A stretch of 64,000 nucleotides of DNA from Desulfobacterales bacterium (GCA_963668645.2 CAXXWC010000003.1:150649-214648), one strand, 5' to 3'; counted from the stretch's first letter, positions 23,161-43,499 are shown. Notes: generated by a model from the sequence alone, not told the origin. Made by a program: numbers and translations.

Positions 23161-26100
23161 CGGTTCATCCCCGCGTGTGCAGGGAACGCGTGGTCACCAT
23201 ATGGGACGATGAGCAGGAGCGCGATTCATCCCCGCGTGCGCGGGGAACGCTTGGTGCGGATGGCGTCCATGCACCGCTGCGCCGGTTCATCCCCGCGTGT
23301 GCGGGGAACGCTTAATCATATCGCCAGCGGTATCGGATTCGATCGGTTCATCCCCGCGTGTGCGGGGAACTCACCTGCCCGGGTCCGCCGGGTTGATCTT
23401 GCCGCGGTTCATCCCCGCGTGTGCGGGGAACGCTCACGCACCCACCGTCCAGGGTGGCGGTGCGACGGTTCATCCCCACGTGTGCGGGGAACGCGGCACG
23501 TGGCCAAGACCGGTCAGCTCCGTGATCGGTTCATCCCCGCGTGTGCGGGGAACGCAATTCAAACTCCCCCGGCATTTCTTGACGAACCGGTTCATCCCCG
23601 CGTGTGCGGGGAACGCATAGTCCCGGGCCCGGACCCCGTACATGCCGTCGGTTCATCCCCGCGTGTGCGGGGAACGCAGCTCAGAAATAACCCAGCCGTT
23701 CGACCCCGTCGGTTCATCCCCGCGTGTGCTGGGAACGCTGCACCACACCCAAGACCTCAAGCCGCTGGATCGGTTCATCCCCGCGTGTGCGGTGAACGCA
23801 GCCTAACAGCCACTTTGTGAGGAAATCCACCCGGTTCATCCCCGCGTGTGCGGGGAACGCATACGGACATAGGGGTCGCCCTTACTCCCGGACGGTTCAT
23901 CCCCGCGTGTGCGGGGAACGCGACTTAGAGACCTCTTTAACGCCCTAGTCTCTAGGTTCATCCCCGCGTGTGCGGGGAACGCTCCAGATAGCGGGCCACC
24001 TTGTCGTTGAAGGCCGGTTCATCCCCGCGTGTGCGGGGAACGCGTCACTTAAACGATTGTAAACAGACTCTACAAGGGTTCATCCCCGCGTGTGCGGGGA
24101 ACGCATGATTATAAGTCCTTTGTTAATGATGGTCAGCGGTTCATCCCCGCGTGTGCGGGGAACGCACTCGCGGATCTTGTCCTCGGTCGACAACTGACGG
24201 TTCATCCCCGCGTGTGCGGGGAACGCAAAAGGCGTCCGGCGACGTGCTGGAGGCGGATCGGTTCATCCCCGCGTGTGCGGGGAACGCTCATAGATGTTCC
24301 AGCACGAAAACTGCCAGGGCGGTTCATCCCCGCGTGTGCGGGGAACGCCCTGCCATGTTTCGTTTCGGGGGGTTATGATCCGGTTCATCCCCGCGTGTGC
24401 GGGGAACGCCAGAAGCCCATGACTCATTAGAGATAGAACGCCGGTTCATCCCCGCGTGTGCGGGGAACACGCCGGTGATCACGGCCGACAAAAGCCCGCT
24501 ATCGGTTCATCCCCGCGTGTGCGGGGAACGCCAAAGTTTGTTCGTCGAGAATTACCGGAGCCGCGGTTCATCCCCGCGTGTGCGGGGAACGCAGCATGTC
24601 GTCGACACCCCGCGGCGTGCGCTCCGGTTCATCCCCGCGTGTGCGGGGAACGCATGCTCTACGACCCGTATGATTTCGAGGGTAGCGGTTCATCCCCGCG
24701 TGTGCGGGGAACGCAGCGCAGGTGCCGTTCCGGCGGCGCCGCTGCCCGGTTCATCCCCGCGTGTGCGGGGAACGCTTGGTGCCTGCAAGCATTCGCCCGA
24801 AAAGCGCCGGTTCATCCCCGCGTGTGCGGGGAACGCGACCATCATTCCAATGCTCACGATTTTGTTTACGGTTCATCCCCGCGTGTGCGGGGAACGCCGA
24901 CGCCTGCGACGCGTTCGACGGCGACGAAACGGTTCATCCCCGCGTGTGCGGGGAACGCTGCCATGGGAGCGTAAATCCCAAGATTGTCGTCGGTTCATCC
25001 CCGCGTGTGCGGGGAACGCGGAATCGCGTCCAGCTCCTCGCGCATGGCCGCCGGTTCATCCCCGCGTGTGCGGGGAACGCATCCGCAGGTCCAGCAGGTT
25101 CTCGCATATGGTCGGTTCATCCCCGCGTGTGCGGGGAACGCTTGTAGTCCTGAGCGTCGGCGTCCCAGGCGAGCGGTTCATCCCCGCGTGTGCGGGGAAC
25201 GCACCCCGGCCACCTTGTCGGGCGACGTGCCCATCGGTTCATCCCCGCGTGTGCGGGGAACGCAGCCCCTGGACCTGCGAGACCTCCAGAAAATCCGGTT
25301 CATCCCCGCGTGTGCGGGGAACGCTATGCCATCGCTCCTGCGGCCAGCGCGGTATACGGTTCATCCCCGCGTGTGCGGGGAACGCTTCTTCGGGTCGCTT
25401 TTGTCCTTGGCGTCCTTCGGTTCATCCCCGCGTGTGCGGGGAACGTCCGTGCCTAAAAATGTTCCGGGACAAGCACGACGGTTCATCCCCGCGTGTGCGG
25501 GGAACGCTGTCGATGGGCTTTGGCATTCCGTATCCGGTTCGGTTCATCCCCGCGTGTGCGGGGAACGCCAATATGCCACCGATCTTGATCACCATTAAAT
25601 CGGTTCATCCCCGCGTGTGCGGGGAACGCTTACTGCATTTAGCCGTGGCGTTATTGACAGCCGGTTCATCCCCGCGTGTGCGGGGAACGCAGTGGATACT
25701 CGCTCACCTGGCCGCCCTCGGCCGGTTCATCCCCGCGTGTGCGGGGAACGCGTGCGGGCCTGGACAACCGCATCGAGATCCGCCGGTTCATCCCCGCGTG
25801 TGCGGGGAACGCCTGCTGGCTGACGAAATTATCGATGAGGTCGGCGGTTCATCCCCGCGTGTGCGGGGAACGCATGCGCCGCATGGTGTTTGGCACCAGC
25901 GGGCGCGGTTCATCCCCGCGTGTGCGGGGAACGCTGGAGGGGCATGAGCTATGGGTGCCAAGGGAACGGTTCATCCCCGCGTGTGCGGGGAAACGCCCGA
26001 TGCCACAGCCTCTGAATTTTTCTCCATGCGGTTCATCCCCGCGTGTGCGGGGAACGCTATAAGATTGCCGTACTTTTCTTCATCCAAACCGGTTCATCCC

Positions 26101-29100
26101 CGCGTGTGCGGGGAACGCTGCTGCCCGGGGGCGCGTAGCGGAGTATTTTTCGGTTCATCCCCGCGTGTGCGGGGAACGCCCCCATCTCTTGGGTTACGGA
26201 CGGACATAACGCGGTTCATCCCCGCGTGTGCGGGGAACGCCAAATCGTGTTTCCTTTCCCGTCGAAGACGGCCGGTTCATCCCCGCGTGTGCGGGGAACG
26301 CGTATTCACTAAGCGCCTGGCTTCTTAGCCGGGCGGTTCATCCCCGCGTGTGCGGGGAACGCGTGTTCGACGAGTTCCCGCGGATCTATATTAGCGGTTC
26401 ATCCCCGCGTGTGCGGGGAACGCGCGCCGACAACTCGCGCCCGTCGGTAAACGACCGGTTCATCCCCGCGTGTGCGGGGAACGCTCCTGTCCGTGCCTAA
26501 CAAGTAAAAACAAGCACGGTTCATCCCCGCGTGTGCGGGGAACGCTGGCGCGGCAGACAGGTTCGATGCCGATTTGGCGGTTCATCCCCGCGTGTGCGGG
26601 GAACGCATTCCATTGATGTTGTCGGATCCTGGCCGCACCGGTTCATCCCCGCGTGTGCGGGGAACGCCCAAATTCCAACGAATTGATTGCCCCCTGAAAC
26701 GGTTCATCCCCGCGTGTGCGGGGAACGCAGACCATCTATATTAGTATAGACGACACGCCCCGGTTCATCCCCGCGTGTGCGGGGAACGCGTTGGCCGTGC
26801 TGGCCGCGGCCGGATTGAGGCCGGTTCATCCCCGCGTGTGCGGGGAACGCCCAGCCGTCCCGGAAAATCTGGCCCACGTGTACGGTTCATCCCCGCGTGT
26901 GCGGGGAACGCACGGATCTTGGCCGAAGGACAAGGGTGAGGACCGGTTCATCCCCGCGTGTGCGGGGAACGCCTTTTGGCACCCATAGCCGGTGTCCTCT
27001 CAGGCGGTTCATCCCCGCGTGTGCGGGGAACGCGGTGGCACCCTGCGCACAGACGGCCTGCGGCGCGGTTCATCCCCGCGTGTGCGGGGAACGCGCCAAA
27101 GGCCAGCGCTCCGGAACAGATATGTTCGGTTCATCCCCGCGTGTGCGGGGAACGCATCTTCTCCCAGCAGGAACCGATCAATCAGGACGGTTCATCCCCG
27201 CGTGTGCGGGGAACGCCTGGTAAAGAGGTTTGTCCGGGACACCAGGAACGGTTCATCCCCGCGTGTGCGGGGAACGCCCGCCGGTTCTGCTGTGTCGCGA
27301 ACACCAGCTCGGTTCATCCCCGCGTGTGCGGGGAACGCCACCCCCATGCCCACCTCCCGTCTCTTTCGTCCGGTTCATCCCCGCGTGTGCGGGGAACGCT
27401 ATACGGGCTGACGGGTTTGGGGATGCGATTTCGGTTCATCCCCGCGTGTGCGGGGAACGCATATCAATAGCAAGGTCGAGAATCTCAGAAGACGGTTCAT
27501 CCCCGCGTGTGCGGGGAACGCATCAGGGTAAACTAAATCAGAGGAAGGGGAACCGGTTCATCCCCGCGTGTGCGGGGAACGCTCCAGGGGTCACTGTTCA
27601 CGATTCTCTACCTGCGGTTCATCCCCGCGTGTGCGGGGAACGCTGCTTACCTGGAGGTTTCCGCATGACCGCGACCGGTTCATCCCCGCGTGTGCGGGGA
27701 ACGCTGCGCCATGCCAGGCATGGTCACCGAGCACATCGGTTCATCCCCGCGTGTGCGGGGAACGCGTTGGAAATAATTTTCATCATCGTCAAAATTTCGG
27801 TTCATCCCCGCGTGTGCGGGGAACGCCAGCCTCGTGTCAGTATCCGTCATTGATCCGCCGGTTCATCCCCGCGTGTGCGGGGAACGCCCGACACGGTGGA
27901 CGCGGAGCTGATCTGCGTCCGGTTCATCCCCGCGTGTGCGGGGAACGCTCCGGTTTTTCTAATTTTGCCTGTCGTTATGGCGGTTCATCCCCGCGTGTGC
28001 GGGGAACGCAATAGCTGGTGTTTTTCTCCCTGATCCGGAACCGGTTCATCCCCGCGTGTGCGGGGAACGCTAATTTATCAGTTGTCAAGGAATCTAATTT
28101 CCCGGTTCATCCCCGCGTGTGCGGGGAACGCTCCACCTTGGCCACCCATGGCGGCCGGCACGTCGGTTCATCCCCGCGTGTGCGGGGAACGCCGGGCCTG
28201 CTGGACATTGACGGTAGGTTTTTCCGGTTCATCCCCGCGTGTGCGGGGAACGCTCGAAAATAGCAAAGGAGGACCCATGAAAAAGCGGTTCATCCCCGCG
28301 TGTGCGGGGAACGCCTTTTCTCAAGACGACCCAGTTCCGGGGCAACCGGTTCATCCCCGCGTGTGCGGGGAACGCGCGCTGGCGGGCAAAGAGGCGCTCG
28401 ATCATCGCGGTTCATCCCCGCGTGTGCGGGGAACGCAGCTCTGGCAGATGGATCCCCAGGGCCAGCGTCGGTTCATCCCCGCGTGTGCGGGGAACGCATA
28501 TAATTATCGGAGACGTCATTTTAGGTGCGCGGTTCATCCCCGCGTGTGCGGGGAACGCACTTGGAGTTGATGAAACGCATCTTGCACCCCCCGGTTCATC
28601 CCCGCGTGTGCGGGGAACGCTGTATCAGACCCTACCCTGTAAGGCCTGCCATCGGTTCATCCCCGCGTGTGCGGGGAACGCGGATATTCCAGCACCGGCC
28701 GCCGCATTTCTGGCGGTTCATCCCCGCGTGTGCGGGGAACGCAACTGCCGGTTGTCTGCGTAGCGCAGCACGGCCGGTTCATCCCCGCGTGTGCGGGGAA
28801 CGCAACGACGGAACGAATTGCGAGCTTTTGCACACCGGTTCATCCCCGCGTGTGCGGGGAACGCTGCGGCTGTCAGCCCCATCATCGCCATGATGTCGGT
28901 TCATCCCCGCGTGTGCGGGGAACGCATTACATGATTTGTACCAAGCCCTCGAAACTCCGGTTCATCCCCGCGTGTGCGGGGAACGCCAGCTAGGGCTCTG
29001 ATGAACTTGATGCCAGGGCGGTTCATCCCCGCGTGTGCGGGGAACGCTGTGTTTTTTCCCCTATTGTTATTTTTTGCACCGGTTCATCCCCGCGTGTGCG

Positions 29101-31487
29101 GGGAACGCTTTGAAAATCTGCGCCCAACACTACCAGCCACCGGTTCATCCCCGCGTGTGCGGGGAACGCTGCCGAGGACGGCAAGGACAAGATTGTGGTG
29201 CCGGTTCATCCCCGCGTGTGCGGGGAACGCTCGAAGCTGGATCCGACGATTTCGGCAAGTGCCGGTTCATCCCCGCGTGTGCGGGGAACGCCAAATCAGG
29301 ACCAATCATATTGATACACGTGTCGGTTCATCCCCGCGTGTGCGGGGAACGCTTTGTTTCGGAGGCTTTGGTTTCGAGCTGCGTCGGTTCATCCCCGCGT
29401 GTGCGGGGAACGCTCCGTAACACCGCCAATGGCGGCCTTGCCGGCCGGTTCATCCCCGCGTGTGCGGGGAACGCATGGTGTGCATGCCGCGTTCTAGGGT
29501 GGCGACCGGTTCATCCCCGCGTGTGCGGGGAACGCCAAAAGAGATTGAGCGCGGAGAGGTCGACGTACGGTTCATCCCCGCGTGTGCGGGGAACGCCAGA
29601 TCTGGCTCTTGGATGCACGTGCGAGCAGCGGTTCATCCCCGCGTGTGCGGGGAACGCGGCTGACCATTAAGCTTATGCAGGGGATCAATCGGTTCATCCC
29701 CGCGTGTGCGGGGAACGCTCGCGTGCGCCTGGTCAACAACGTGGTGCCGGCGGTTCATCCCCGCGTGTGCGGGGAACGCTATTTGAATGGTGCTATCATT
29801 GATGCAGGTACCGGTTCATCCCCGCGTGTGCGGGGAACGCTGATGACCACCGGCGCGGAGTGGGTCCTGTTTCGGTTCATCCCCGCGTGTGCGGGGAACG
29901 CTTACGGATACCAAGACTGCCGTCAATATCGGGCGGTTCATCCCCGCGTGTGCGGGGAACGCTGGTAACTCCGAAATCTTGCATGGTATCCCTCCGGTTC
30001 ATCCCCGCGTGTGCGGGGAACGCCGCCGGGAGGGACCGTGGACGGGGCTTTGGAGCGGTTCATCCCCGCGTGTGCGGGGAACGCTTTCAGAACGTTTATC
30101 AGGCGGTGGTTGCCGCCGGTTCATCCCCGCGTGTGCGGGGAACGCCGAGCTCGGCGTTGATTCGGTCGAGCACGTGACGGTTCATCCCCGCGTGTGCGGG
30201 GAACGCATGTCGATGCCTCCGGCCAGCGCCGTGCCGGCCGGTTCATCCCCGCGTGTGCGGGGAACGCAGATCGTCGCGCCGCCGATGATGCTGCAGGACC
30301 GGTTCATCCCCGCGTGTGCGGGGAACGCGGTGGCGTACCAGCTCGATGATTTTTCCATGCCGGTTCATCCCCGCGTGTGCGGGGAACGCCGCAGCACCTC
30401 GTCGGGCTCCATGCCCAGCTCCGGTTCATCCCCGCGTGTGCGGGGAACGCCCTCGACGCCATCGGAGCGATTCATGCAGCCGCGGTTCATCCCCGCGTGT
30501 GCGGGGAACGCGGATCGTGATCAAGCGCAGGCGCATGCGACTGCGGTTCATCCCCGCGTGTGCGGGGAACGCCTTGACCGTCCGCTGAAATTTAAGAAAC
30601 CAAGCGGTTCATCCCCGCGTGTGCGGGGAACGCCCGGCGCCACCGGCGATTGTGGCCACTAATGCCGGTTCATCCCCGCGTGTGCGGGGAACGCCCTGAA
30701 CGTGCCCGCGCAGCATCCATCCAACGCGGTTCATCCCCGCGTGTGCGGGGAACGCCAGGTGTCCATGGGCTCTACCAAATATGGCGTCGGTTCATCCCCG
30801 CGTGTGCGGGGAACGCGATAAACATGATCGTGTTATTGTCCAGGAAAAAGGTTCATCCCCGCGTGTGCGGGGAACGCAACTCAATAAATACCGAATCCTG
30901 CTCACTGGCCGGTTCATCCCCGCGTGTGCGGGGAACGCGTTCCGTTCCGAGTTGTTCAAAGCGCGTGCTTAGGTTCATCCCCGCGTGTGCGGGGAACGCT
31001 AAAATCATGGCGTACGACGCTGCGCCACCACCGGTTCATCCCCGCGTGTGCGGGGAACGCGATCTTACATCGTGGCTGATCCTCTATGGGTACGGTTCAT
31101 CCCCGCGTGTGCGGGGAACGCCCGGCCAGAAAAAACCTACCCGAGCGCGGCGCCGGTTCATCCCCGCGTGTGCGGGGAACGCAGAGAGTGTCTTGCCGAT
31201 ATGAGCTATGACAGCGGTTCATCCCCGCGTGTGCGGGGAACGCGAAACTCGTCAGCCGCCAGTACCGCGTGGCGGTGGTTCATCCCCGCGTGTGCGGGGA
31301 ACGCCGATGCGCCGACACGGTGCCGCGTGTACGCGACGGTTCATCCCCGCGTGTGCGGGGAACGCTTGAATTCCCCGGAACTCAATCGAACACCCTTCGG
31401 TTCATCCCCGCGTGTGCGGGGAACGCAATTTATCCAATGAATGTATCGATTAAATATTCGGTTCATCCCCGCGTGTGCGGGGAACGC
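23161..31487 (-). CRISPR. Type I-E CRISPR array, 137 repeats of 29 nt and 136 spacers (mostly 32 nt), transcribed right to left
   Basis: Plus-strand repeat CGGTTCATCCCCGCGTGTGCGGGGAACGC. The minus-strand form GCGTTCCCCGCACACGCGGGGATGAACCG is close to the E. coli I-E repeat. I stepped through every unit: the period is 61 nt, with a 62-nt step at 26029 (1-nt insertion in the repeat) and another at 28592. The leader and cas2 are at the right end, and repeat mutations accumulate at the left (trailer) end. Confidence 0.97.
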
Positions 31488-31548: not shown

Positions 31549-32769
<1,221 letters not shown>

Positions 32770-32773
<4 letters not shown>

Positions 32774-33614
32774 TCAATTTCCTTCGGCGCTTTGCAGCGC
32801 AAGCGCTTTTTGCCTTCCGGCGCTTCAAGGTAATTTTCGGGTGTAACGACCTTGGAGCCGGTCTCGATCTCCAGTTTTTCACGGGCATCTCCCGCGATTC
32901 GTCCCCCTTTGCGTGCTGCAATCATGTTTTCACCCACGCCCTGCGCATCCTGCTTTCGTGCAATTTCAGTGGTGGCCGCCTCGCCCAGCATGGAAAAAAT
33001 CAGCTCCAGATCGGTCATGTGGTCGCGCAGGCTTTCCCTCTCCGGCCTTTCAGGTCCTTGTATTCGGACGGCGTCAGCCCGAAAGTGGCCTTTGAAATTT
33101 CGGCCGTCAGGATAGCGTATTCGGGCTCTTCCCCAACCCCTCGCTTCTTCCACTCGTCGGTCAGTTCGGCCCGCACTGCAATCCCGCGCATGCGTTTTTC
33201 GATCCAGTCGTCGGAATAGCCCTTGGCCCGGTAGAGCGCCCGGGTGCGCTTGGAAGCCAACTCCGGGTCTTCTATCTCCTGGACCCTCTCGTAGCCTACC
33301 TTGGCCAGCCAGCGCTTGAACGGTTCGGCTCTATGCGAGGGGATGGACTGGATGATGCGGAAAAGGCCCTCGGTGTTGGCACAGTTAGTCCTACGCAATT
33401 TCCCGTCAGGCGCCAGGAGTTCAAGGGGGGTACAAATTGTACCCCAGTTATTGCTCAACTCTGCATCGCGCCGCCTCATCTTCTTTATGTATTGCTTCGG
33501 ATCGGCGCTATCCGCCAACACTTCCACTACATCGGTAACGGAAAACCACCATTCATTATTATGCGACGCGGGCCGAATTTGTTTGCCTTTGAATACGACC
33601 AACTTGGTCTTCAT
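32770..33614 (-). pseudogene. Bro-N / DinD-like (DNA-damage-inducible protein D family) gene, split by a 1-nt frameshift, inserted between cas6e and cas1
   Basis: The N-terminal ORF (ATG 33614, RBS AGGGGGA) reads MKTKLVVFKGKQIRPASHNNEWWFSVTDVVEVL...CANTEGLFRIIQSIPSHRAEPFKRWLAKVGYERVQEIEDPELASKRTRALYRAKGYSDDWIEKRMRGIAVRAELTDEWKKRG...ILTAEISKATFGLTPSEYKDLKG. The family-typical continuation ERESLRDHMTDLELIFSMLGEAATTEIARKQDAQG... is in the -1 frame (track ORF 32770..33153). The frame change is at about 33040-33050. The stop overlaps the cas1 ATG (ATGA at 32770-32773). Confidence 0.65.
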
Positions 33615-33684
33615 CAATCCCCCTGGCAAGTCACTTAAAACAGCCACCTGGCGCCACCCGTCCGGGGGCACCATCATAATGTGC

Positions 33685-34365
33685 TCAAGTTATGGGAACG
33701 ACCGACATCAGGCCCAGGCCCATGGCCTTTCCGTGACCGATACCGAATTCCAGGGCATCATTGAACTTGCCTGCGTCGGTTACCGAGAGAAGGCCTTCAT
33801 AAAGGACCGCGAAGAGCCGTATCGCGTTGCCGCCATGCTGCCTTCCCCGGAGCATCTGGTCTTGTGATATCCGCACGTCAATCCGCGTTAGCGAGGAACC
33901 TTGAAGATCAGCGCTTTCGGGGTCCCATCCTGGAAACCCAAATCCGTGCAGCCCGGCCTTACGCACAAGCCATGACATCTGCTCGTCGAACCGAAGCAGC
34001 CCGATGCGCTTTCCTTTGCGGCACACGCAGGGATTGGCGCGCAGTCTGAAACGAAATTTCCGGCCGGCCGTGAGCAAATCCAACTTGAGCCGAATCCTCA
34101 GGTCAATGGGGGGATCGGCCCCTGCGAGCCAGCCTCTCACGCCGATCCCTTTCCAGTCGGGCCTCGAACGGCTCTGAACAAGAACCTGGGCAAAGCCGGA
34201 TCGATCCGTTTCCGGTTCGATGCGCCACAGAAATTGGCCGCTTGGGCATTTGCGATCCGGGGGGTTGAATGCCCGGCAAAGCGTGGCATGCAACTGGTAC
34301 GGGTCCGCCAGGTCGCGCCGGGCTTCCCGGCACCGCGGGTCAATGTGGATCCTGTTCAGGAACAT
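33685..34365 (-). CDS. cas6e: CRISPR RNA endoribonuclease Cas6e (CasE/Cse3)
   Basis: Start at ATG 34365 with AGGAGG upstream. MFLNRIHIDPR...DPYQLHATLCRAF..., FRFRLRANP, and the C-terminal GIGHGKAMGLGLMSVVP parallel E. coli CasE (YQLHQGLWHLF, YFRLRANP, GIGPAKSMGCGLLSLAP). Confidence 0.9.
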   Translation of the reverse strand: MFLNRIHIDPRCREARRDLADPYQLHATLCRAFNPPDRKCPSGQFLWRIEPETDRSGFAQVLVQSRSRPDWKGIGVRGWLAGADPPIDLRIRLKLDLLTAGRKFRFRLRANPCVCRKGKRIGLLRFDEQMSWLVRKAGLHGFGFPGWDPESADLQGSSLTRIDVRISQDQMLRGRQHGGNAIRLFAVLYEGLLSVTDAGKFNDALEFGIGHGKAMGLGLMSVVPIT

Positions 34366-35047
34366 CGGATACCTCCTGGGGAAAGGGGATCCACGCCGAA
34401 CGCACGAACCGTGCGCCAAACCGCCGCTCGGAAAAGGACGACAGCGGCTGATCCATTCTCAAAACGCCTGATCCGTCATCGGACTCGAACGAAATCAATA
34501 ATTTCTCAGGTGCTTTTTCCCATTTGCGTTTTGTTGCGATCCATGGCCACCGCGTCAACACGTCCAGCGCGAACTCGTCCTTCAGGCCATCTTCCACCGC
34601 CACCGGTTCGGAGGGCACATAGGATTTGCGCCCCAGGGCCAACGGCCAGAAAGGATTTCTCAGTGCGGCGTCAAGGTTTTCGAGAAACGCGAGGTCATTT
34701 CCTTCCATGCTGACAAGAAAGGCCGCATCAGCGAGATAGTGGCGCTGCGAGACCACACCGTCTTTTGAAAGGCTCCCATCCGCCTTGATGATCCTGTCTG
34801 TGGCCGCGCACCCTGCCGTCTGGTAATCCCGCTTGGGAATCCCCGGCCGGTCATGGCGCACCGCCATCTTCAATTGCGCGATCGGTTCCAGATTTTTCCA
34901 ATTGTCCCGGTCGATTCCCGAGGCAGCAGCCAAAAGCCCGACGACACCCGACTTGCTTGGTTCTTTGCCGGTATCGCGCTGGTCGAATCGGCTGGTGGTT
35001 CCCCAGGATTGCATTGGGCCCGCCAGGCGAAGCAGCAATGTGGGCAT
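34340..35047 (-). CDS. cas5: Cascade subunit Cas5e (CasD)
   Basis: MPTLLLRLAGPMQSWGTTSRFDQRDTGKEPSKSGVVGLLAAASGI compares with E. coli CasD ILRLAGPMQAWGQPTFEGTRPTGRFPTRSGLLGLLGACLGI. Confidence 0.9.
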   Translation of the reverse strand: MPTLLLRLAGPMQSWGTTSRFDQRDTGKEPSKSGVVGLLAAASGIDRDNWKNLEPIAQLKMAVRHDRPGIPKRDYQTAGCAATDRIIKADGSLSKDGVVSQRHYLADAAFLVSMEGNDLAFLENLDAALRNPFWPLALGRKSYVPSEPVAVEDGLKDEFALDVLTRWPWIATKRKWEKAPEKLLISFESDDGSGVLRMDQPLSSFSERRFGARFVRSAWIPFPQEVSDVPEQDPH

Positions 35048-35050
35048 GGC

Positions 35051-36214
35051 TCACTCCTTTGCCGCTTGCACCGCGTTTTCCAGCAGCGCATCCAGGGTAG
35101 TCTCAACCTTGGCTCCCGATCCATCGATCTGCGCGTCCGCGAGATTCAAGATGAACGTCTGCCCGGCGCCCCCGTAGGCGGCCTGGAGCGCCTTGGCTTT
35201 TCGGGCGAGCAATTCGGCCGATTTTCTGGTGATGGACTCATCTTTTCCTACGCGCACTGAGATCTCGAAGGCATTGGCGAGACTTCGCGGTGCCGTATCG
35301 CGGCGCACGGCGATAGCTACGAATTCTGGTGGATTGTGGGCCGCAAAGGTGTTCTGTTTGCCGGTCGGCTCGGCGACCACGAAGGCCTCCAGAAAGGCCT
35401 TCAGCCCTTTTTCTGCGAGATCGGTGTCGCCTTGAAGGTTCCCGACGAGCTTTTCCCAGTCCACGAGCGCATACCGATAGAAACAGGCCGAATTGAACTC
35501 GACAGTTCCCATCATGTCCGCGCCGGCAGTGTCTTCCGGCTTGAGATCGTCCACGGCGGTATAGAAATCGAATTCACGCTCGACGGCATGGGTCGATATT
35601 GCGTGAGCCACCTGGCAAGCGGCATCCTGGTTCTTTTCCGGCATGTCGGCCAGCATGCGTCCGAAAAAAGCCACATCGACCGCTTTGACGCCGTCAAGGA
35701 CCTTGTCGAGGGCTACCTTTAATTCTGGGTCGGCGTCCTGGGCGGCCTTTTTCTTGGCCTTGCCGGCCTTCTTCCCTTCCACCGACGCCGCCTCACCAGA
35801 AACGATACGATCCCAGCGCTTGTCGATGATATCGGCGATTTTCGATATCTCGCGTCGTCCGACAAACAACAGGTACTCGGTTTTCCCGTCATCCTTTACC
35901 GCAAACCCCATGGTTTCCAATGCCGTCTGCGCTTTTCCAGTCGCTTCATCCACGTTGCGTCCTTTTTCTGCCAGGGCCGCGGCCAGAGGCTGCAAAAGGC
36001 GCTTGGTCCGAACGGCGATATCTTCAGATGACAATGCGTTCTTTTTTACCAATCCATTGAAGTGCTGCCTTACCGCCCGCTTGAAACATTGGCTGGAGAC
36101 ACGGGCGCGGCGGGTGCCGCCGAACAGGGCGTCCTTGGGCGCGCCGGTGTCATCCCGGTTCAGGTTGGACGGGGCAAAGTTTTGCAGCGCGTGAATCTCT
36201 ACGATGGTTTTCAT
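35051..36214 (-). CDS. cas7: Cascade backbone subunit Cas7e (CasC/Cse4)
   Basis: [49 protein letters not shown] compares with E. coli CasC [45 protein letters not shown]. 387 aa. Confidence 0.92.
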
Positions 36215-36726
36215 TCGGCGACCTCCTGGTTGGTTAAACCGTTCGATATCGTACCGGATTGGGATCGATAGTAGTCTCGCGCCCAGGCGTTCTGGGTGCG
36301 TTTCTGATCGTCGTTCCAGTACAGCAGACCCTTCAAGACGGATTCAAAGTCTATGGGCTGGTCCTTGAGCAGCGCGACCATCTGGCGCAGCCTGTGGGGC
36401 AACTGGTCTGCGTCGGAATCCAGCAGGTTGATAAAACGCCTCTCGACACTCGTCGAGCCGCTTGCCGATTGAAACGCCGCGCAGGCTCTGCCGAGCGGCA
36501 GCGAAGGTTCCCGTTGTCCCTCTCTCCAGTGCCCGGCCCAAAGACCGGCCACGAGGTAGTGGACCTTGCGCCGCCACGCCGTTTCCGCATCCTTCACGAA
36601 GGGTTCCACGTAAGGAAAGGCAGGCACGAATTGTCCCGGGTCGAACGCCAGGCTCTGGCGCAGGACTGCGCGCACCTTGGTGTCTTTTTCGTTCAAACGC
36701 TCAAGCCATTCGATATAACCGCTCAT
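36211..36726 (-). CDS. cse2: Cascade small subunit Cse2 (CasB)
   Basis: 171 aa, helical and Arg/Trp-rich. Its position between cse1 and cas7, with 4-nt overlaps on both sides, matches the canonical I-E order. Confidence 0.8.
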
Positions 36727-38264
36727 TCCCCCTCCTTGTTCGGTTCGAGCTTCATAATCTCGTTACTCAGCACGTTCAGTTTGTCCCGCACTGGTTTTTC
36801 GGCTTTCACCAGAGCGCGTATAGCCCACGCATCCCCCATGGCGACCGAGGCGCTGTGCTTCTCCCAGGCTTTGCGCAATGCTCCGCGCACCGATTCGAGC
36901 CATTGGCGCCGGATATCATTCTCGTCTCGATCCAGACTGTAGTCTCGCAAAATTTCATGGAAATGGGATTCCATCGCGGACCAATACCAGGCGATCGCAG
37001 GCATCTGCTCCACAAAGTTTTTGACATCCTTCGCTGCCGGTTCACGTCCTCCACGGCCCAACAGTTGCCGTGCAAATGTACGACAGGCCTGCCAAAGAGC
37101 ACTTTGAGCATCTTCGGCGTCGGATAGAAGCTGATGGATTTCCGTACGGATAAAACGGTCGGTGCCCAACGCTTCGGGTAAGGCGAATCGTTCCATCCGC
37201 CAATACTTGATCTTTGCCTTGTCGTTGGCCTGACCGAGGACAATTACCGACTTGGGAAATCGCCCCCGATCTGCTCGGGTTAAAATCGTTGCATGCTCGA
37301 TAACACGCGGTGCCAGGCGCGATTCATCCGGCAACAAGGAATCGAAGTCACGCCAAAGCCCTCGATCACGGAACTGGACCGGCAATTTTCCTCTTTTTTC
37401 GTCGATCCGGTAACCGAGCATGGGATCGACATATCCTTCCAAGGAGCACCCAATACCGGACGCGAAAGTCAGTTCCGCAATCGAAGCGTCGCCCCCCTGC
37501 GGATTGAATTTGATGGATCTCGTCCTCCAAGTATATAGATCCGACCGTCCCAAAACGGCTCTTTCTATGCCTTTTTGGAGAGATGCGAGAGAGTCCGGCG
37601 CTCTTTCCCAAACAGGAACGTCTGTTTTGAGTATTTCCCGGTTTTCAGGAACCAATGAAAAAAGAAGAGTGTCTTGAAGGGTTATGCCCAATGGAAGCGC
37701 CATTGCCGTAGCGGCTGAAGGCCCGCTCTTGGTATATTGGAAATCGCTTCTGCCACCGCCCAGCGCAAATGTTTGAGAAGCGATCAGCCAGCGAACCGCC
37801 TTCTTGGCGGGGATCGATCCTGCCTGCCGAATGTCGAGGTGATCGAAAAGGACCTTGGCATTGTCGGCATTGTGCTCTGCAGCGATTGCCGCCCATGAAC
37901 GCCACCGCTTCTTACCGCCTTTTTCTTTTGGCTCATAATCCGGAATCTGAAAAAAGGGATATTCTTCGTCAAACAACCAGAACCGGCTCCGCCATTTCTC
38001 CAGATAATCGGCGATCCGCTCGTCGGGCAGACCGCTTTTGAACAAAGCCTTGGCCTGGTCGATGCCGGTCGGCCCTTCCAGCGCACGGTAAAGCACCGCC
38101 AGCAGGAAACGATGCAAGGCGGCGACCACCAGGGGCGATGGATCCTCGATGGCGGAAATCTCCAAGGCGCGGCGCAGCGTGTCGCGGATGCCCAGTTCGT
38201 CGCGGGATCCGTCTGGAAACCGCACCGGAATCCATTTCTCGTCGATCAGGTTGAATCGGCTCAT
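36723..38264 (-). CDS. cse1: Cascade large subunit Cse1 (CasA/Cas8e)
   Basis: 513 aa. The N-terminus MSRFNLIDEKWIPVRFPDGSRDELGIRD is the typical Cse1 opening (NLLxxxWIPV). It lies directly downstream of cas3 with a 4-nt overlap. Confidence 0.85.
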   Translation of the reverse strand: MSRFNLIDEKWIPVRFPDGSRDELGIRDTLRRALEISAIEDPSPLVVAALHRFLLAVLYRALEGPTGIDQAKALFKSGLPDERIADYLEKWRSRFWLFDEEYPFFQIPDYEPKEKGGKKRWRSWAAIAAEHNADNAKVLFDHLDIRQAGSIPAKKAVRWLIASQTFALGGGRSDFQYTKSGPSAATAMALPLGITLQDTLLFSLVPENREILKTDVPVWERAPDSLASLQKGIERAVLGRSDLYTWRTRSIKFNPQGGDASIAELTFASGIGCSLEGYVDPMLGYRIDEKRGKLPVQFRDRGLWRDFDSLLPDESRLAPRVIEHATILTRADRGRFPKSVIVLGQANDKAKIKYWRMERFALPEALGTDRFIRTEIHQLLSDAEDAQSALWQACRTFARQLLGRGGREPAAKDVKNFVEQMPAIAWYWSAMESHFHEILRDYSLDRDENDIRRQWLESVRGALRKAWEKHSASVAMGDAWAIRALVKAEKPVRDKLNVLSNEIMKLEPNKEGE

Positions 38265-40960
38265 TCGGCCTCCTTTGGTTCAAACACCAACCCCAGGTCT
38301 TCATCCAGGCGCACGGACGGATCTTCCACCCACTGGCCGTCCGGTCTCAGCACGAGCGCAAAGCAGTTGCGCAACAACGACGATTCCCGCCATCCTTCCG
38401 GAATTCCCTGGGTTTTGAGTCTTGCGACGACGCCTTTGCGCGACAGGCTCACGGCCCGCTGGAACCATCGCTTGGCCGTTGCGAAATCCGGCGCGTCGGC
38501 CGGCTGGAATCCATCGGCCGCAAACAGGGGAATAGCCACCACGGAATCCTCACCGAACCGGGTTCGGGCCATGAGGGTTCGATGCACGCCCGGGGCATCC
38601 TCGTCGTAAAGCACGAACCTTGCCGGATCATTCCAAGACCCATCGTCCGGAAAGCCCACGATCGCATGGTGGGCCATCGCCTGGAATGCGAGGGCGTCGC
38701 CATCTGCCTTGATCCGGGCGCTTTCCAGTCGTTCCTGCAAGGCTTCGGTGACCTCCACCTCGTCTTCGTACACGGCCTGAACCAAGGGGTCGATCTCGTC
38801 CGGCAGTGTCAGGGTCGGCCGGTCTTTCAGCAGGCTCCAGGTGCGCAAGAGCAGATCTTCGCGATAAACGGAATCCCACCACAACGGCTTTCCGAAGGAT
38901 GGCGGCACTTCGCTATCGAGTCCTGAAACCATCAGAATCGGTTCGGCCACGGGCCTCGAATCCGCAGCATGCCGCCACAAGCGCCCGGCCCTTTGAAGAA
39001 CGAGGTCGATGGGCGCCAGATCGGTCACCATGATGTCGAAATCGAGATCAAGGCTCTGCTCGGCGACCTGGGTGGCGATGAGGATCTTGCGGCCGGACCG
39101 AACGCTATCCTTGCCGAACGCCGCGAGCGCATGGTCCTCCCGAACCTGCCTCCAGGAGGCCGGAAAGCGCGCATGGAAGAGGAACACCTCCGTGCCGTCC
39201 TCAAGGCGCTTGCCGACTCGGCGGTTCTGGCACACCACAGGCTCGCCCTCGGGAGACAGCCGGTAGAGGTCCTGGGCGCGCTGCACCGTGTTGACCAGGG
39301 CCAGCCCCGTGCCACCTCCGGCAAGATGGGCCTCAAGGCTGGCACGGATAACCGATAAATCGGACGGGATGCCGACGAGCCGCAGCACCCGGCGGCGTTT
39401 CGGGTCCGCCTCGAAGTGCGTTTGCGCCACGCCCTCTTGATTGAAAACCGTCAGACGCGGATACCCCGGTTCTCGCTCCAGCTTCTCCGCACCCACCACC
39501 GCCGCCAACTTCCGACGGATCGATGGCGACAAGGTGGCCGAAAGGAGCACCACCGAAGAGCCAAGCGCCAGAAGCCATCGCAGCAGGTGGACCAGCAGGG
39601 TGCCGGTGTAGGCGTCGTAGGCGTGGATTTCGTCCAGCACCACGACCCGGTTGGCAAGTCCCCACAGGCGGACGAAGTTGTGGCGAACCGGCAGGATCGG
39701 CAACAGCGCCTGATCCACGGTCCCGACCCCGTATTCCGAGAGCAACGCCCGCTTCTTGTGGGTGAACCATTCGCCGGCGCGGATTTCGCCCCCCGATTCA
39801 GGGTCGTGTATCCCCGTTAAGCGCAAATCCTGAAAGCTGTCGTTGAGCAACGCCCCACCGTGCAATAGCTGCAAGTCCAGCGATCGGTCGGAGATCTGGC
39901 CCGTCAGGAAATCGCGCGTCCGGGCGAACATTGCATTTCCGGTGGCCTTGGTCGGCAGCGCCACGTAGAGGCCGCGATGGCCGAAACGGCGTTGCAGCTC
40001 CAGGTACGCGTAAAAAGCGGCCTCGGTCTTTCCTTCGCCCATGGGTGCTTCCACCAGCAGGATGGCCGGCGCCGGCACTTTTGTTACTATGTTTTCCACA
40101 GCCTGCTGAAGAGTACGAGGCCTAAGGCCGAAAACCGATTCAAACGACTCCGCTTCTTTAGAAAGCGGATCCCTTCTCTGCCAACCGAGGCTGTCCAGGG
40201 CATGATCAGCAAACATCCTGCGCTTTGCAAACCAGGCTTTCAGGTCAACACAATCTTCTACGGTTCCAAACGGGAACCAATCGACGTTTGAGCCAATCCA
40301 GTCGGCAAAGCTGGTCAGACCGGCCAACAGCATAAAATCCTGCCCTGAAAGGTTCTGTGTTTCAGGTAGAATTCCTGTGCCTAAAACTTCAAATACGGAC
40401 TCCATGATGTCGCGCCGGGCATCGTTCCATTCCTTTTTTCCAATGGCGCGTTGATCTCCACTTAATCTATCCAGAACTGTCGGGTTAGCTCTCTCGCCAT
40501 GGTGGCAACCAACCGCATCCGCGGCCGACTCCGCCAGATCCTCGGACCAGCCTTTCTCCACAAGAAATTCTGTCAAAGCGATCTGGCTGACAAAGGCATG
40601 ATTGATATTGGTGTTCGGACTTCTGGGAAGCTCCAAGCCGGTACCGCTGGAAAGCCATCCGAGCCACTTGCACTGGAACCCCGGGCAGGCTTTGCCCAAA
40701 TCATGGCATGCGGATAGGCTTAAAATCCAAGACCGTGCCATAACCCATTTCATACCCAAAATCCCAGAGATCAAATTCCTTGTTGTCTCCGGCTCTCTTG
40801 CCAATATTGCATCCGTACAGGCAGCCACATCCAGAAGATGAAGAATAAGAGGATGCCATTTTGCTTCCCCACTGCTCTCTGTTTTAGCCCAGAGGCAAGC
40901 CAAACGCTTTTCCACCGTTTCCCCCCCTCGATCCTTCAGTATTCTGTCATAACGTAGCAT
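38261..40960 (-). CDS. cas3: Cas3 HD nuclease / DEAD-box helicase (I-E type)
   Basis: 899 aa. HD domain (HLLDVAACTD...LSACHDLGKACPGFQ...AVGCHHG). Helicase motif I (VEAPMGEGKTEAA), motif II (VVLDEIHAYD), LLSATL, and motif VI (QRAGRLWRH). Confidence 0.95.
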   Translation of the reverse strand: MLRYDRILKDRGGETVEKRLACLWAKTESSGEAKWHPLILHLLDVAACTDAILAREPETTRNLISGILGMKWVMARSWILSLSACHDLGKACPGFQCKWLGWLSSGTGLELPRSPNTNINHAFVSQIALTEFLVEKGWSEDLAESAADAVGCHHGERANPTVLDRLSGDQRAIGKKEWNDARRDIMESVFEVLGTGILPETQNLSGQDFMLLAGLTSFADWIGSNVDWFPFGTVEDCVDLKAWFAKRRMFADHALDSLGWQRRDPLSKEAESFESVFGLRPRTLQQAVENIVTKVPAPAILLVEAPMGEGKTEAAFYAYLELQRRFGHRGLYVALPTKATGNAMFARTRDFLTGQISDRSLDLQLLHGGALLNDSFQDLRLTGIHDPESGGEIRAGEWFTHKKRALLSEYGVGTVDQALLPILPVRHNFVRLWGLANRVVVLDEIHAYDAYTGTLLVHLLRWLLALGSSVVLLSATLSPSIRRKLAAVVGAEKLEREPGYPRLTVFNQEGVAQTHFEADPKRRRVLRLVGIPSDLSVIRASLEAHLAGGGTGLALVNTVQRAQDLYRLSPEGEPVVCQNRRVGKRLEDGTEVFLFHARFPASWRQVREDHALAAFGKDSVRSGRKILIATQVAEQSLDLDFDIMVTDLAPIDLVLQRAGRLWRHAADSRPVAEPILMVSGLDSEVPPSFGKPLWWDSVYREDLLLRTWSLLKDRPTLTLPDEIDPLVQAVYEDEVEVTEALQERLESARIKADGDALAFQAMAHHAIVGFPDDGSWNDPARFVLYDEDAPGVHRTLMARTRFGEDSVVAIPLFAADGFQPADAPDFATAKRWFQRAVSLSRKGVVARLKTQGIPEGWRESSLLRNCFALVLRPDGQWVEDPSVRLDEDLGLVFEPKEAE

Positions 40961-41339
40961 TCCGGTCCGAAATTTTTAGCCAAATTTTCCCCACAGCCCG
41001 TGCATCGTCCAGAGCCCGATGCAGCCGCAACGCCTCGGTCTCCCCAGGAACCAGATAGAGGTCGCCGCCGATAAATTGACGAAAGTAATCAAAGACCAGC
41101 ACCGGTTCGGGCTGGCCGGCGAACATCGCCTCGCTGATACCGTGGACCTGCCTTGCACCGGGTGTAACTTTCCGGCCGCAGTCGATCATGCTGTGAAACG
41201 CCTCACCCGGACCGGCGCCGGATATGCGCACCGTGGCGATTTCGATCACCCGGTGCCCGCGTGCCGGCGACATGCCGGTGGTTTTCAGGTCCACCGCCCC
41301 GGCTGGTTTCAGTTTTCTTTTGCCCAATTCACACCTCAT
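40947..41339 (-). CDS. Degenerate DEDDh (DnaQ-like) 3'-5' exonuclease domain protein, probably catalytically dead
   Basis: Start at ATG 41339, which overlaps the stop of the upstream gene (ATGA). The 3' end overlaps cas3 by 14 nt. Exo I reads VDLKTTG (Lys where the catalytic Glu of DxE is expected). IIEIA-like RVIEIATVRI, HGISEAMFAGQP, and Exo III HRALDDARA are present. The Exo II HNxxFD block and about 50 residues between FIGGD and LRLH are missing. Confidence 0.55.
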   Translation of the reverse strand: MRCELGKRKLKPAGAVDLKTTGMSPARGHRVIEIATVRISGAGPGEAFHSMIDCGRKVTPGARQVHGISEAMFAGQPEPVLVFDYFRQFIGGDLYLVPGETEALRLHRALDDARAVGKIWLKISDRNATL

Positions 41340-42154
41340 TTCAGGGGCCTTGTACCCCTGCATTGCGGATAATCGGAGCAACCCCAGAACCGGGTGCCGG
41401 CGTTTTTCCCGTAGCGGGCGGTTCGTTGCTTCATGGGCCGGCCACACTTGGGGCAAACCGGGGGTTGGGTCGGATCGGCCTGATCGGACTGATCCGTCGG
41501 ATCGGACCGATCGGAAGACAGTTTATTGCAACGCCGCTCGGCCAGGCGGGCCGCCAGGAGATTTTCGCGATAGCCGCCCTTTTCGATAACGGCCCGTTCC
41601 AGAGCCGTAATCTGGCGGTCCAAAAGAAAGTTAGCCTGGTGGATCAGGCAGATCAGGGTATTGGCGACGATGGCCGGATCGGGATTTTCCAGCCAAAAGG
41701 CGTATTTGGAATAATCGGAGGCATCCGACGGATCGGTCGCATCCGTCGGATCAGACATGATTTTGCCCAAACACCGCACTTCCGAGGCCTCCGGGCCGTC
41801 CTTGGCCCATTGGGGAAGATGGCGCTGGCGCAGGAAATCTTCATAATCCAGCAGCAGTTCATCCAGGCTGGCACGGGCCACATTGGTCAGGCGGATTTCA
41901 GAGGCGCTGCTGGTCGCTCCGGCACGGCTTCCTTCGGCGATGTTTTGCCGGCCGCTACGTGCCGCTTGCACCATCTGGTCGTGGGTGCGCGAGCGCGGAT
42001 CGACAAACCTTCGGCAAAAGGAGATTGTCCCATCGTAGATGATGGTTGCCGTTTGAAAACTGCGCAGCTTGCGGTATCCGCCGCCGGCCCTCAAACGCTG
42101 CGGTCGATCTTTCCGGTCCGGCCGGCCTTTTATCGTCGGTCCGTCGGGCGACAC
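41336..42154 (-). CDS. Four-helix-bundle protein (23S rRNA intervening-sequence / Avd-like family) with Asp/Ser/Thr/Pro-rich linkers and a C-terminal topoisomerase-type C4 zinc finger
   Basis: GTG start at 42154. The core YRKLRSFQTATIIYDGTISFCRRF...QMVQAARSGRQNIAEGSRAGATSSASEIRLTNVARASLDELLLDYEDFL carries the QxxRAxxSxxxNIAEG signature of the family. The C-terminus reads CPKCGRPMKQRTARYGKNAGTRFWGCSDYPQCRGT. Confidence 0.65.
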   Translation of the reverse strand: MSPDGPTIKGRPDRKDRPQRLRAGGGYRKLRSFQTATIIYDGTISFCRRFVDPRSRTHDQMVQAARSGRQNIAEGSRAGATSSASEIRLTNVARASLDELLLDYEDFLRQRHLPQWAKDGPEASEVRCLGKIMSDPTDATDPSDASDYSKYAFWLENPDPAIVANTLICLIHQANFLLDRQITALERAVIEKGGYRENLLAARLAERRCNKLSSDRSDPTDQSDQADPTQPPVCPKCGRPMKQRTARYGKNAGTRFWGCSDYPQCRGTRPLK

Positions 42155-42419: not shown

Positions 42420-43499
42420 TTACCCTCTGCTCCCTTCGTGCCAAAGAGATATGTTCTCCGCCGTACGGCTTTCGATTTGCGAGTCCCCCACATCCTGGAC
42501 CTCCTCCAACGGTTCAGGCCCGTATTGGCGCAAGGCTTCAACCATATCCCGGCGTACCGCCTCGCGCAGCTCGACCGGCGCCGCCACATAGGCCTCGGGG
42601 CCCAGACTCAGCACCCACTGCTTGATCTCATCAAGGCCGGCCACCCGAAAGGCGATCTCGATGCCGCCATCGATCTGCTTCTGGATCGACTGGCTCGCAT
42701 GCCAGATCCTTCCGGCGACGTACCTCGCCCAAGCCGGGCTGATACGGATACGCACCGCGTAAATCTCGTCGCTCATCACCTTGAAGCTGTTTTTGACAAA
42801 ATCCACGAAACGGAAGGTATCCGGAATTGTGAAAAAATCATCGGTGGACTGAAGCAGACTTATACGGTCCACTGCGAAAATGCGAACCGCCGCGCGCAGA
42901 TGGCAGTAAGCCACTAGGTAGATGGTGCCGTCCTGATACCAGACCTTGTATGGGTCGATACGCCGGCGAACCCGTTCGCTGTCGCGCAGGCCCTGGTAGG
43001 CGATCTCCAAGGTGCGTTTCTCCACGGCGGCCGCCGCCACCTGGCTGACGATGCCCGCATGGCGGCCATGATCGCGGCAGGGGCCGAGGCCGGCGCAAAC
43101 GGCATCCTTCAATCGGGCAAGGTAGTCACGCGTCTCGTCCGGCAAACCGGCTTCGACTTTCTGCAACAGTCCTGACAGCGATTCGTGGAACACCGTTCCC
43201 CGCAGCCCGTCCATCATCGCCTCGCTCATCCGCAAGGCCATCAGTTCGGTGGGTTGCAAGGGCTGATCCACGGTAAAACGGTAGCCTTCCATCAGCCGCC
43301 AGCGCTTGCGGCCCCCGACTTTATCGGTATAGATGGGAAACCCGGCCTGTTGCAGGTCTTCCAGATCCCGGTAGGCCGTGCGCTGGCTCACCCCGGCAAG
43401 GGCCTTGATCTGGGCCACGGTGCACCCGGTCCGGGAGGCTTCAAGCCGTCTTAGAATCCGCCATTGCCTGGAAAGCTGGTCTCCGCGCATGTCCCCCAT
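42420..43499 (-). CDS. WYL-domain transcriptional regulator (HTH-WYL-WCX, YafY/PafBC-like)
   Basis: 359 aa. N-terminal wHTH LSRQWRILRRLEASRTGCTVAQIKALAGVSQRTAYRDLEDLQQAGFPIY, and a central WYL region RRIDPYKVWYQDGTIYLVAYCHLRAAVRIFAVDRI. Confidence 0.8.
   Translation of the reverse strand: MGDMRGDQLSRQWRILRRLEASRTGCTVAQIKALAGVSQRTAYRDLEDLQQAGFPIYTDKVGGRKRWRLMEGYRFTVDQPLQPTELMALRMSEAMMDGLRGTVFHESLSGLLQKVEAGLPDETRDYLARLKDAVCAGLGPCRDHGRHAGIVSQVAAAAVEKRTLEIAYQGLRDSERVRRRIDPYKVWYQDGTIYLVAYCHLRAAVRIFAVDRISLLQSTDDFFTIPDTFRFVDFVKNSFKVMSDEIYAVRIRISPAWARYVAGRIWHASQSIQKQIDGGIEIAFRVAGLDEIKQWVLSLGPEAYVAAPVELREAVRRDMVEALRQYGPEPLEEVQDVGDSQIESRTAENISLWHEGSRG

Follow-up and report, generated by a model that had tools for sequence, protein, structure and literature searches.

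A variable cargo slot upstream of cas1

A 64,000-nucleotide (nt) stretch of the genome of a Desulfobacterales bacterium (GCA_963668645.2 CAXXWC010000003.1:150649-214648; this whole stretch is hereafter the window) carries on its minus strand a whole type I-E operon of a CRISPR-Cas system. Between its genes cas6e and cas1 lies a frameshifted gene of the Bro-N/DinD family (32770-33614, minus strand), which corresponds to the phage-defence candidate PDC-S13 of PADLOC and is the single occupant of this junction in the window. Sequence comparisons suggest that it is rather probably a defence-associated autonomous cargo gene, which is embedded in a mobile adaptation module at a hypervariable slot and is frequently gained, swapped, and degraded. 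The junction is a hotspot for the embedding of defence genes inside CRISPR-Cas operons. A lineage of type I-E adaptation modules bearing this slot is widely transferred, and the equivalent boundary of type I-C operons also carries the gene. The family is a known but uncharacterised candidate, and its CRISPR-Cas host and position appear to be unreported.

The variability of the slot was assessed by a Cas1-centred metagenome scan of 80 loci (L084-L163), whose Cas1 is 80-90% identical to that of the window and of which 70 are informative. In 14 of the 70 the junction is empty and the interference gene abuts cas1; over this I-E lineage, about 80% of the loci have an occupied slot. The commonest occupant is the Bro-N/DinD-family gene, found in about 19-22 loci, 11 times alone and otherwise together with Fic, YhcG, or IVP. 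Several of the copies are fragments (L084, L109, L141, and L155), and 49 of the 70 loci do not have the gene. Fic alone fills the slot in five loci, a YhcG/DUF1016 PD-(D/E)XK nuclease in four to five, a 23S_rRNA_IVP four-helix-bundle protein in three, and a DnaQ-like exonuclease, with or without VapBC, in another three (L094, L153, and L156). The remainder hold MNT+HEPN genes, IS200-like genes, extra arrays, or unknown open reading frames (ORFs). Cargo differs even between close sisters: loci with 80-98% identical Cas1 have an empty slot or unrelated cargo, and L130 and L091, which share 92% DNA identity over cas1-cas2, carry unlike cargo, as do L141 and L085; in these pairs, older cargo has left remnants in layers.

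Three further observations concern how cargo is arranged in such loci. In L130 (1-1717, compared with L091:2496-3512), an internally deleted Fic remnant, a duplicate of the first ~24 nt of cas1, and a YhcG fragment are followed by the Bro-N gene, an order that resembles cargo added in successive layers at the 5' end of cas1. In the type I-C locus of Desulfobulbaceae DB1 (L184, 6271-11966), the Bro-N gene, YoeB/YefM, a RhuM-Fic fusion, and PIN/MazE lie between two copies of cas4, the whole island being set between cas7 and cas1. Judged from the duplication of cas4, this cargo seems to have arrived via recombination between adaptation modules. A Bro-N/DinD-like gene adjoins a Fic-domain gene in L145, L150, L152, L006, L054, and L026, both in the cas slot and elsewhere, and the two genes may constitute a module.

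Recurrence in type I-E and type I-C loci

The first-pass annotation of the window had allowed for an insertion confined to this one genome and flanked by scars. A survey of other loci found instead intact homologues in the same slot of at least 27 I-E loci, and a homologue in each of at least 13 I-C loci, where the corresponding boundary adjoins cas4 or cas1. The carriers include Desulfobacterota, Bacteroidota (Marinifilum), Bacteriovoracaceae, and Chrysiogenota. Among the I-E homologues, P0001 and P0002 lie in the order cas6e-gene-cas1, and P0098 (from the cultured Desulfurispira natronophila) and P0018 in the alternative order cse2-cas6e-cas7-cas5-gene-cas1. The I-C homologues P0025 and P0111 show the orders cas4-gene-cas1 and cas4-gene-(cargo island)-cas4-cas1, respectively.

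A scan of GTDB species genomes returned at least 593 relatives, of which 80 were kept after ranking by similarity to the cas-linked query, so that the sample leans on that query. Among these best 80, seven lie directly upstream of an I-E cas1, one beside a cas1 remnant, 11 in I-C operons (cas7-gene-cas4 or cas4-gene-cas1), and four more are adjacent to cas genes. The 81 loci L002-L082, which comprise the GTDB scan and L082 and are subject to the same ranking, include 19 cas-embedded and four adjacent copies, and the rest are elsewhere. L001 is the 20th embedded locus and brings the total to 82.

Relatives embedded in restriction-modification operons

Members of the family are found embedded and co-oriented in several defence systems, namely type I-E and type I-C CRISPR-Cas, type III restriction-modification (R-M), and the neighbourhood of type IIG R-M. 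Relatives at 64-70% identity lie between type III mod and res (L029) and beside a type IIG R-M gene (L036), and others adjoin Fic/SoFic and RhuM. The repertoire of the cas1-proximal slot (Fic, YhcG, 23S-IVP, RhuM, and toxin-antitoxin genes) is also the repertoire that is embedded in R-M operons.

These relatives bear on the junction with the downstream gene. The stop/start overlap ATGA of the window gene with cas1 had been taken in the first-pass annotation as a wiring of the gene into the adaptation module. This interpretation does not stand, because the family has the same 4-nt overlaps with varied downstream genes, including type III restriction enzymes, Fic, and the I-C cas1; a -4 overlap with the downstream gene is present in L040, L054, L062, and L071. 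Hence, the ATGA reflects a general embedding style of the family rather than adaptation-specific wiring.

The window copy is frameshifted

The approximately 280-codon gene previously noted between cas6e and cas1, with its stop overlapping the cas1 start, was recovered as a 281-amino-acid (aa) protein after repair of a frameshift, and the peptides quoted for it are present. As it stands, the gene spans 845 nt over two frames (33015-33677 and 32770-33153 in six-frame translation, minus strand). Protein and DNA alignments to intact homologues place the frameshift at 33043/33044, where codon Leu191 (CTG) has lost its T ('GGCC[T]GGAG'). This 1-nt deletion lies outside any homopolymer and gives rise to a premature TGA at 33015-33017. 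With one base put back, the protein is 84% identical to its nearest intact homologue (P0001). The gene is no chance ORF, as the repaired protein matches over its full length both PADLOC PDLC04920, the PDC-S13 profile of its own subfamily (E=1.4e-117), and phrog_15286, a PHROG of unknown function (E=4e-94). Programmed frameshifting was considered and ruled out, because every homologue reads through this position without a break and no homopolymer is present there. Judged from these alignments, the window copy is a pseudogene, an assembly error being less likely.

The gene is separated from cas6e by a gap of ~70 nt. Its TGA and the ATG of cas1 share the ATGA at 32770-32773 (minus strand), and a Shine-Dalgarno-like AAGGA is situated within its 3' end, 6-7 nt upstream of the cas1 ATG. 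Since the window copy is a pseudogene, cas1 must depend on its own Shine-Dalgarno sequence. No promoter-like or terminator-like site was found between cas6e and cas1 on the coding strand, and a search for direct repeats, inverted repeats, and insertion sequence (IS) scars flanking the gene found none.

Domain composition and relationship to DinD

The profile search on the repaired protein, which the first-pass annotation had proposed, gave significant Bro-N and PDC-S13 matches. The predicted Bro-N DNA-binding domain is borne out: PF02498 matches aa 16-105 (33300-33569, minus strand) with 47.2 bits against a gathering threshold of 25.6 (E=3.6e-12). It is followed by a helical C-terminal region that is common to DinD (aa ~122-250; 32866-33251, minus strand), delineated by the PADLOC profile and a weak NCBIfam DinD match and containing the conserved motif KGLxRExLRDHMTDLELIFSMLGEAATTEI. 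PHROG Ant matches reach only the Bro-N part (aa 1-105). Pfam finds no KilAC/ANT domain in the repaired protein, and no nuclease motifs or domains were detected in it.

The proposed likeness of the C-terminal half to DinD holds at the level of the family and fails at the level of the orthologue. E. coli DinD itself bears a Bro-N domain and matches two PDC-S13 profiles, PDLC04919 (E=2.4e-121) and, over aa 122-250, PDLC04920 (E=2.2e-16). Identity of the window protein as a DinD orthologue was rejected, as NCBIfam DinD (NF008573) scores only 15.4 bits, far under its curated cutoff of 242 bits, with E=0.009 and a match confined to aa 148-226. An hhalign comparison of the family profile with the single DinD sequence was not significant (E=0.075, probability 0.75%), so the homology to DinD rests on the PADLOC profiles. 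By these profile matches, we regard the two proteins as homologous in both halves and alike in architecture at the superfamily level. The product of E. coli dinD (L083:3761-4585) also matches the first 267 positions of a 717-aa PADLOC 'type I specificity subunit' profile (E=3e-114) and the N-terminus of a Bro-N+RhuM profile (PDC-S05). Hence, DinD-type modules appear to occur fused to HsdS and RhuM proteins.

The family is very large, a profile search yielding 10,878 cluster representatives (50% identity, E<=1e-3), and it is unusually conserved, its members retaining 65-84% identity over bacterial phyla, the candidate phyla radiation (CPR), and some archaea. Viral contigs are poor in relatives, with 15 in IMG/VR (2.9 M contigs) versus at least 593 in GTDB species genomes. 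The name 'phage antirepressor', which public annotations give to relatives, is therefore misleading.

Structure prediction with AlphaFold2 (36 homologues) gave a predicted local distance difference test (pLDDT) of 80-91 for Bro-N and of 36-65 for the C-terminal half, with a predicted template modelling score (pTM) of 0.43. Foldseek aligned the model to the DNA-damage protein DdrC of Deinococcus (E about 7e-4, template modelling score 0.23), a weak lead given the low-confidence C-terminal model. A profile search of the PDB found no related solved structure, and its sole match, to villin-headpiece, is at chance level (E=0.76). The segment in question, the conserved LTAEISKAAFG(L/M)TPSEYKxLKGLxRENLRD (repaired aa 154-198; window ~33020-33155), recalls the villin-headpiece of PDB 3mya.

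Apparent exchange of adaptation modules

Over the loci L002-L163, Cas1 is 78-90% identical to that of the window, while the identity of Cas3, Cse1, Cas7, Cas5, and Cas6e is often no more than 24-46%, with two gene orders in use (cas7-cas5-cas6e and cas6e-cas7-cas5). These identities suggest an exchange of adaptation module and array among very divergent I-E interference modules. In comparisons of the window with L002, L012, L013, L017, and L053, DNA similarity begins at the Bro-N start codon and extends over cas1, cas2, leader, and repeats, with no DNA similarity in cas6e. The Bro-N gene, which is co-oriented with the cas genes and often overlaps cas1 by its stop codon, tends to be inherited with cas1-cas2.

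The type I-E locus and its array

The operon was delineated by Pfam and NCBIfam profile matches, and all of its genes are on the minus strand. The interference module (34340-40960) comprises cas3 (38261-40960), cse1 (36723-38264), cse2 (36211-36726), cas7 (35051-36214), and cas5 (34340-35047), and is completed by cas6e as the last interference gene (33685-34365/34419; PF08798, E=8.5e-47, and TIGR01907). Downstream of the Bro-N gene, the type I-E cas1 (31850-32773; TIGR03638, E=3.6e-113) overlaps at its 3' end by 20 nt with the type I-E cas2 (31549-31869), the latter matching PF09707 (E=1.6e-35) at aa 55-140 of an ORF at 31549-32031. The flanks of the locus are chromosomal and non-prophage.

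The CRISPR array (23162-31487, plus strand) adjoins cas2 with its leader end. It is very large, having 137 near-perfect repeats and 136 spacers with a period of 61 nt, and its degenerate repeats are confined to the leader-distal end (23162-23500). This size, together with decay only at the leader-distal end, indicates a long history of active acquisition beside the now-broken Bro-N gene.

Just upstream of cas3 lie two more minus-strand genes, one for a regulator of the helix-turn-helix (HTH)-WYL-WCX type (42420-43499) and one for a small protein that bears a zinc ribbon of the topoisomerase type (41336-42154). WYL regulators are frequently linked to CRISPR loci.

Discussion

Cargo, accessory, selfish element, or regulator

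The gene is rather probably cargo, as judged from the slot and from the relatives in R-M operons. As such it would be an autonomous gene for auxiliary or second-line defence that rides on the transcription of the cas operon, in parallel with the Fic, YhcG-nuclease, 23S-IVP, RhuM, and toxin-antitoxin genes that alternate in the slot and likewise in R-M operons. The Bro-N domain would bind DNA, and the domain shared with DinD would act on recombination or DNA-end intermediates produced by Cas3 or by restriction cuts of invading DNA. In doing so, it might block recombinational rescue of cut phage genomes, or the protein might serve as a sensor or backup once the host system is inhibited.

Several observations weigh against the cargo reading and favour a true adaptation accessory, that is, a factor akin to DinD which would be translated together with Cas1, modulate RecA or DNA ends, and tune the supply of prespacers or shield intermediates of integration and repair in I-E as well as I-C systems. 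The association with cas1 exceeds what simple random embedding would produce. The gene recurs in at least 40 loci of several phyla, and within cas loci it always abuts the adaptation genes, directly upstream of cas1 in I-E and of cas4/cas1 in I-C. The -4 overlap with cas1 is present in 10 of the 17 other I-E loci having a full copy directly upstream of cas1, and the ATGA overlap with cas1 recurs in the I-C loci L015, L022, L037, and L183. The six closest homologues that were looked up are all intact and all within cas operons. Among the GTDB relatives, ranked as they are by similarity to the cas-linked query, 18 of the 23 with at least 70% identity are cas-embedded or adjacent, versus about six of the 59 below 70%. 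There is also co-inheritance with Cas1: of 30 carriers, 24 have another carrier as their nearest neighbour by non-identical Cas1 (base rate 38%), and pairwise identities of the Bro-N protein and Cas1 are correlated (Mantel r=0.62, p=0.0005). As a neighbour-joining tree of 83 members is star-like and leaves a single cas clade unresolved, nearest-neighbour and signature-residue tests were used. For 29 of 31 cas-embedded copies, I-E and I-C mixed, the nearest neighbour is another such copy (base rate 37%), and these copies have signature residues such as K236, present in 97% versus 17%. Both results indicate that a cas-associated sublineage exists, and this sublineage may keep a link to adaptation. 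A further point concerns the mechanism, since a RecA-directed action is an extrapolation from a single distant homologue and members of PDC-S13 are only candidates for an anti-phage role.

It is this strong positional and phylogenetic association with cas1 that keeps the accessory alive as a rival, to which the role of DinD as a known regulator of RecA filaments (Uranga et al. 2011, as cited in PMC4849656) lends some plausibility. The rival is nevertheless unlikely. The gene is missing from 49 of the 70 loci with a near-identical Cas1, 14 of which have nothing in the slot, and unrelated defence-type genes take the same place. Relatives at 64-70% identity show the same overlap style in R-M operons, copies have decayed repeatedly, that of the window included, beside an array of 137 repeats, and a physical or functional coupling to Cas1-Cas2 is purely hypothetical. 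In its broader form, the proposal is that the cas-linked sublineage is an unrecognised I-E/I-C adaptation accessory, co-transferred with cas1-cas2 and the array and linking acquisition, or the fate of Cas3-processed DNA, to the control of RecA and recombination, with the junction as a docking site for DNA-damage and abortive-infection effectors; this too we hold to be doubtful. A selfish stabiliser or addiction-type element, which would make loss of the locus costly or hitch-hike on selection for CRISPR-Cas and would have no role in immunity, and a Bro-N transcriptional regulator of cas1-cas2 or the array, or one that couples expression to DNA damage, are both less likely than the cargo and accessory readings. 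The selfish element fits the toxin-type genes in which the slot is rich (PIN/VapBC, MNT-HEPN, YoeB/YefM, and Fic), the quick turnover with its many remnants, and the frequent horizontal transfer implied by 65-84% identity across phyla and domains, and 'genomic sink' and selfish-linkage arguments are discussed in the literature. It is improbable because no partner antitoxin is consistently adjacent, the gene being the sole occupant in the window and in 11 metagenomic loci, and because strong purifying selection on a 280-aa protein, evident from its abundance of cluster representatives and its long invariant motifs, points to a cellular function. The regulator is more improbable still. Phage regulators and anti-repressors typically have the DNA-binding Bro-N domain, and E. 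coli dinD is SOS-regulated, but the intergenic DNA upstream of the gene is not conserved, similarity among loci beginning at the start codon; moreover, R-M operons of unrelated kinds embed the same protein, no promoter-like site was found near the gene, and another regulator, of the WYL type, is already encoded upstream of cas3. A recent accidental insertion of a prophage anti-repressor remnant in this genome only, which the public 'phage antirepressor' names and the frameshift of the window copy might suggest, is effectively excluded by the dozens of loci with the same arrangement, the lack of flanking repeats or IS scars, the lack of KilAC/ANT in Pfam, the few relatives on viral contigs, and the chromosomal, non-prophage context.

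Likeness to known systems

The first-pass annotation knew of no cas-associated Bro-N/DinD family. As a family it had in fact been published: PDC-S13 is an untested candidate that emerged when BREX, DISARM, and type I R-M systems were screened by 'guilt-by-embedding' (Payne et al., bioRxiv 10.1101/2024.01.29.577857), and it is among the prevalent candidate systems of a later survey (PMC12988326). As regards the position, no description of Bro-N/DinD-type genes in cas operons was found in the literature consulted, which included the main text of two surveys of CRISPR-linked genes. The window gene resembles PDC-S13 in its full-length hidden Markov model match and in being a single gene co-oriented within a multi-gene defence operon. 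It differs in its host: PDC-S13 was defined from BREX, DISARM, and type I R-M, whereas here the host is CRISPR-Cas I-E/I-C and the position is the interference/adaptation junction. Copies embedded in cas operons make up a loosely separate sublineage, and activity of the family against phage is predicted only.

With E. coli DinD (PcsA), the repaired protein shares a Bro-N domain followed by a helical C-terminal region with a KGL...L-DHM...EL motif, a similar length (274 aa for DinD versus 281 aa), and matches to PDC-S13 profiles. DinD is nonetheless a distant subfamily (NF008573, 15 versus 242 bits), and dinD is a stand-alone, LexA-regulated gene beside yicC/yicG, whereas the window gene is operon-embedded. 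dinD is listed among LexA-regulated genes (PMC6590174), and DinD is described in PMC4849656, with reference to Uranga et al. (2011), as removing RecA filaments.

PrrC of the EcoprrI hsd operon and CreTA of type I-B cas operons, both embedded modules of the guard or addiction kind, are likewise small, nested, co-expressed genes with a plausible backup or safeguard function. They have no sequence kinship with the family, and CreTA is an RNA toxin-antitoxin pair. Cas4 and DnaQ-like exonuclease fusions, which are known accessories of adaptation, are similar in their position beside cas1 and their flavour of DNA metabolism; in contrast to these, the window family has no detected nuclease motifs, is not restricted to CRISPR, and is dispensable in close relatives by Cas1. 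Phage anti-repressors and AriS-like SOS inhibitors (PMC9043618) also combine an N-terminal Bro-N-type domain with a C-terminal effector, and some of them damp the SOS/RecA response. Their architecture is Bro-N or AntA/B with KilAC/ANT, whereas the C-terminus of the window protein is not KilAC/ANT by Pfam and its family is overwhelmingly cellular.

Implications

As the gene is broken in the window, its direct biological effect there is probably nil. If the family is only cargo, the scope of 'guilt-by-embedding' extends from R-M, BREX, and DISARM to CRISPR-Cas; the junction would be a highly occupied hotspot that can be mined for new defence genes, and adaptation modules would travel with a mini defence island of their own. 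The cultured isolate Desulfurispira natronophila has an intact copy (L179; GCA_014203025.1), which makes experiments feasible. If the cas-associated sublineage instead functions in adaptation, a family of RecA regulators would be tied to spacer acquisition, a link that is testable because I-E adaptation relies on repair intermediates.

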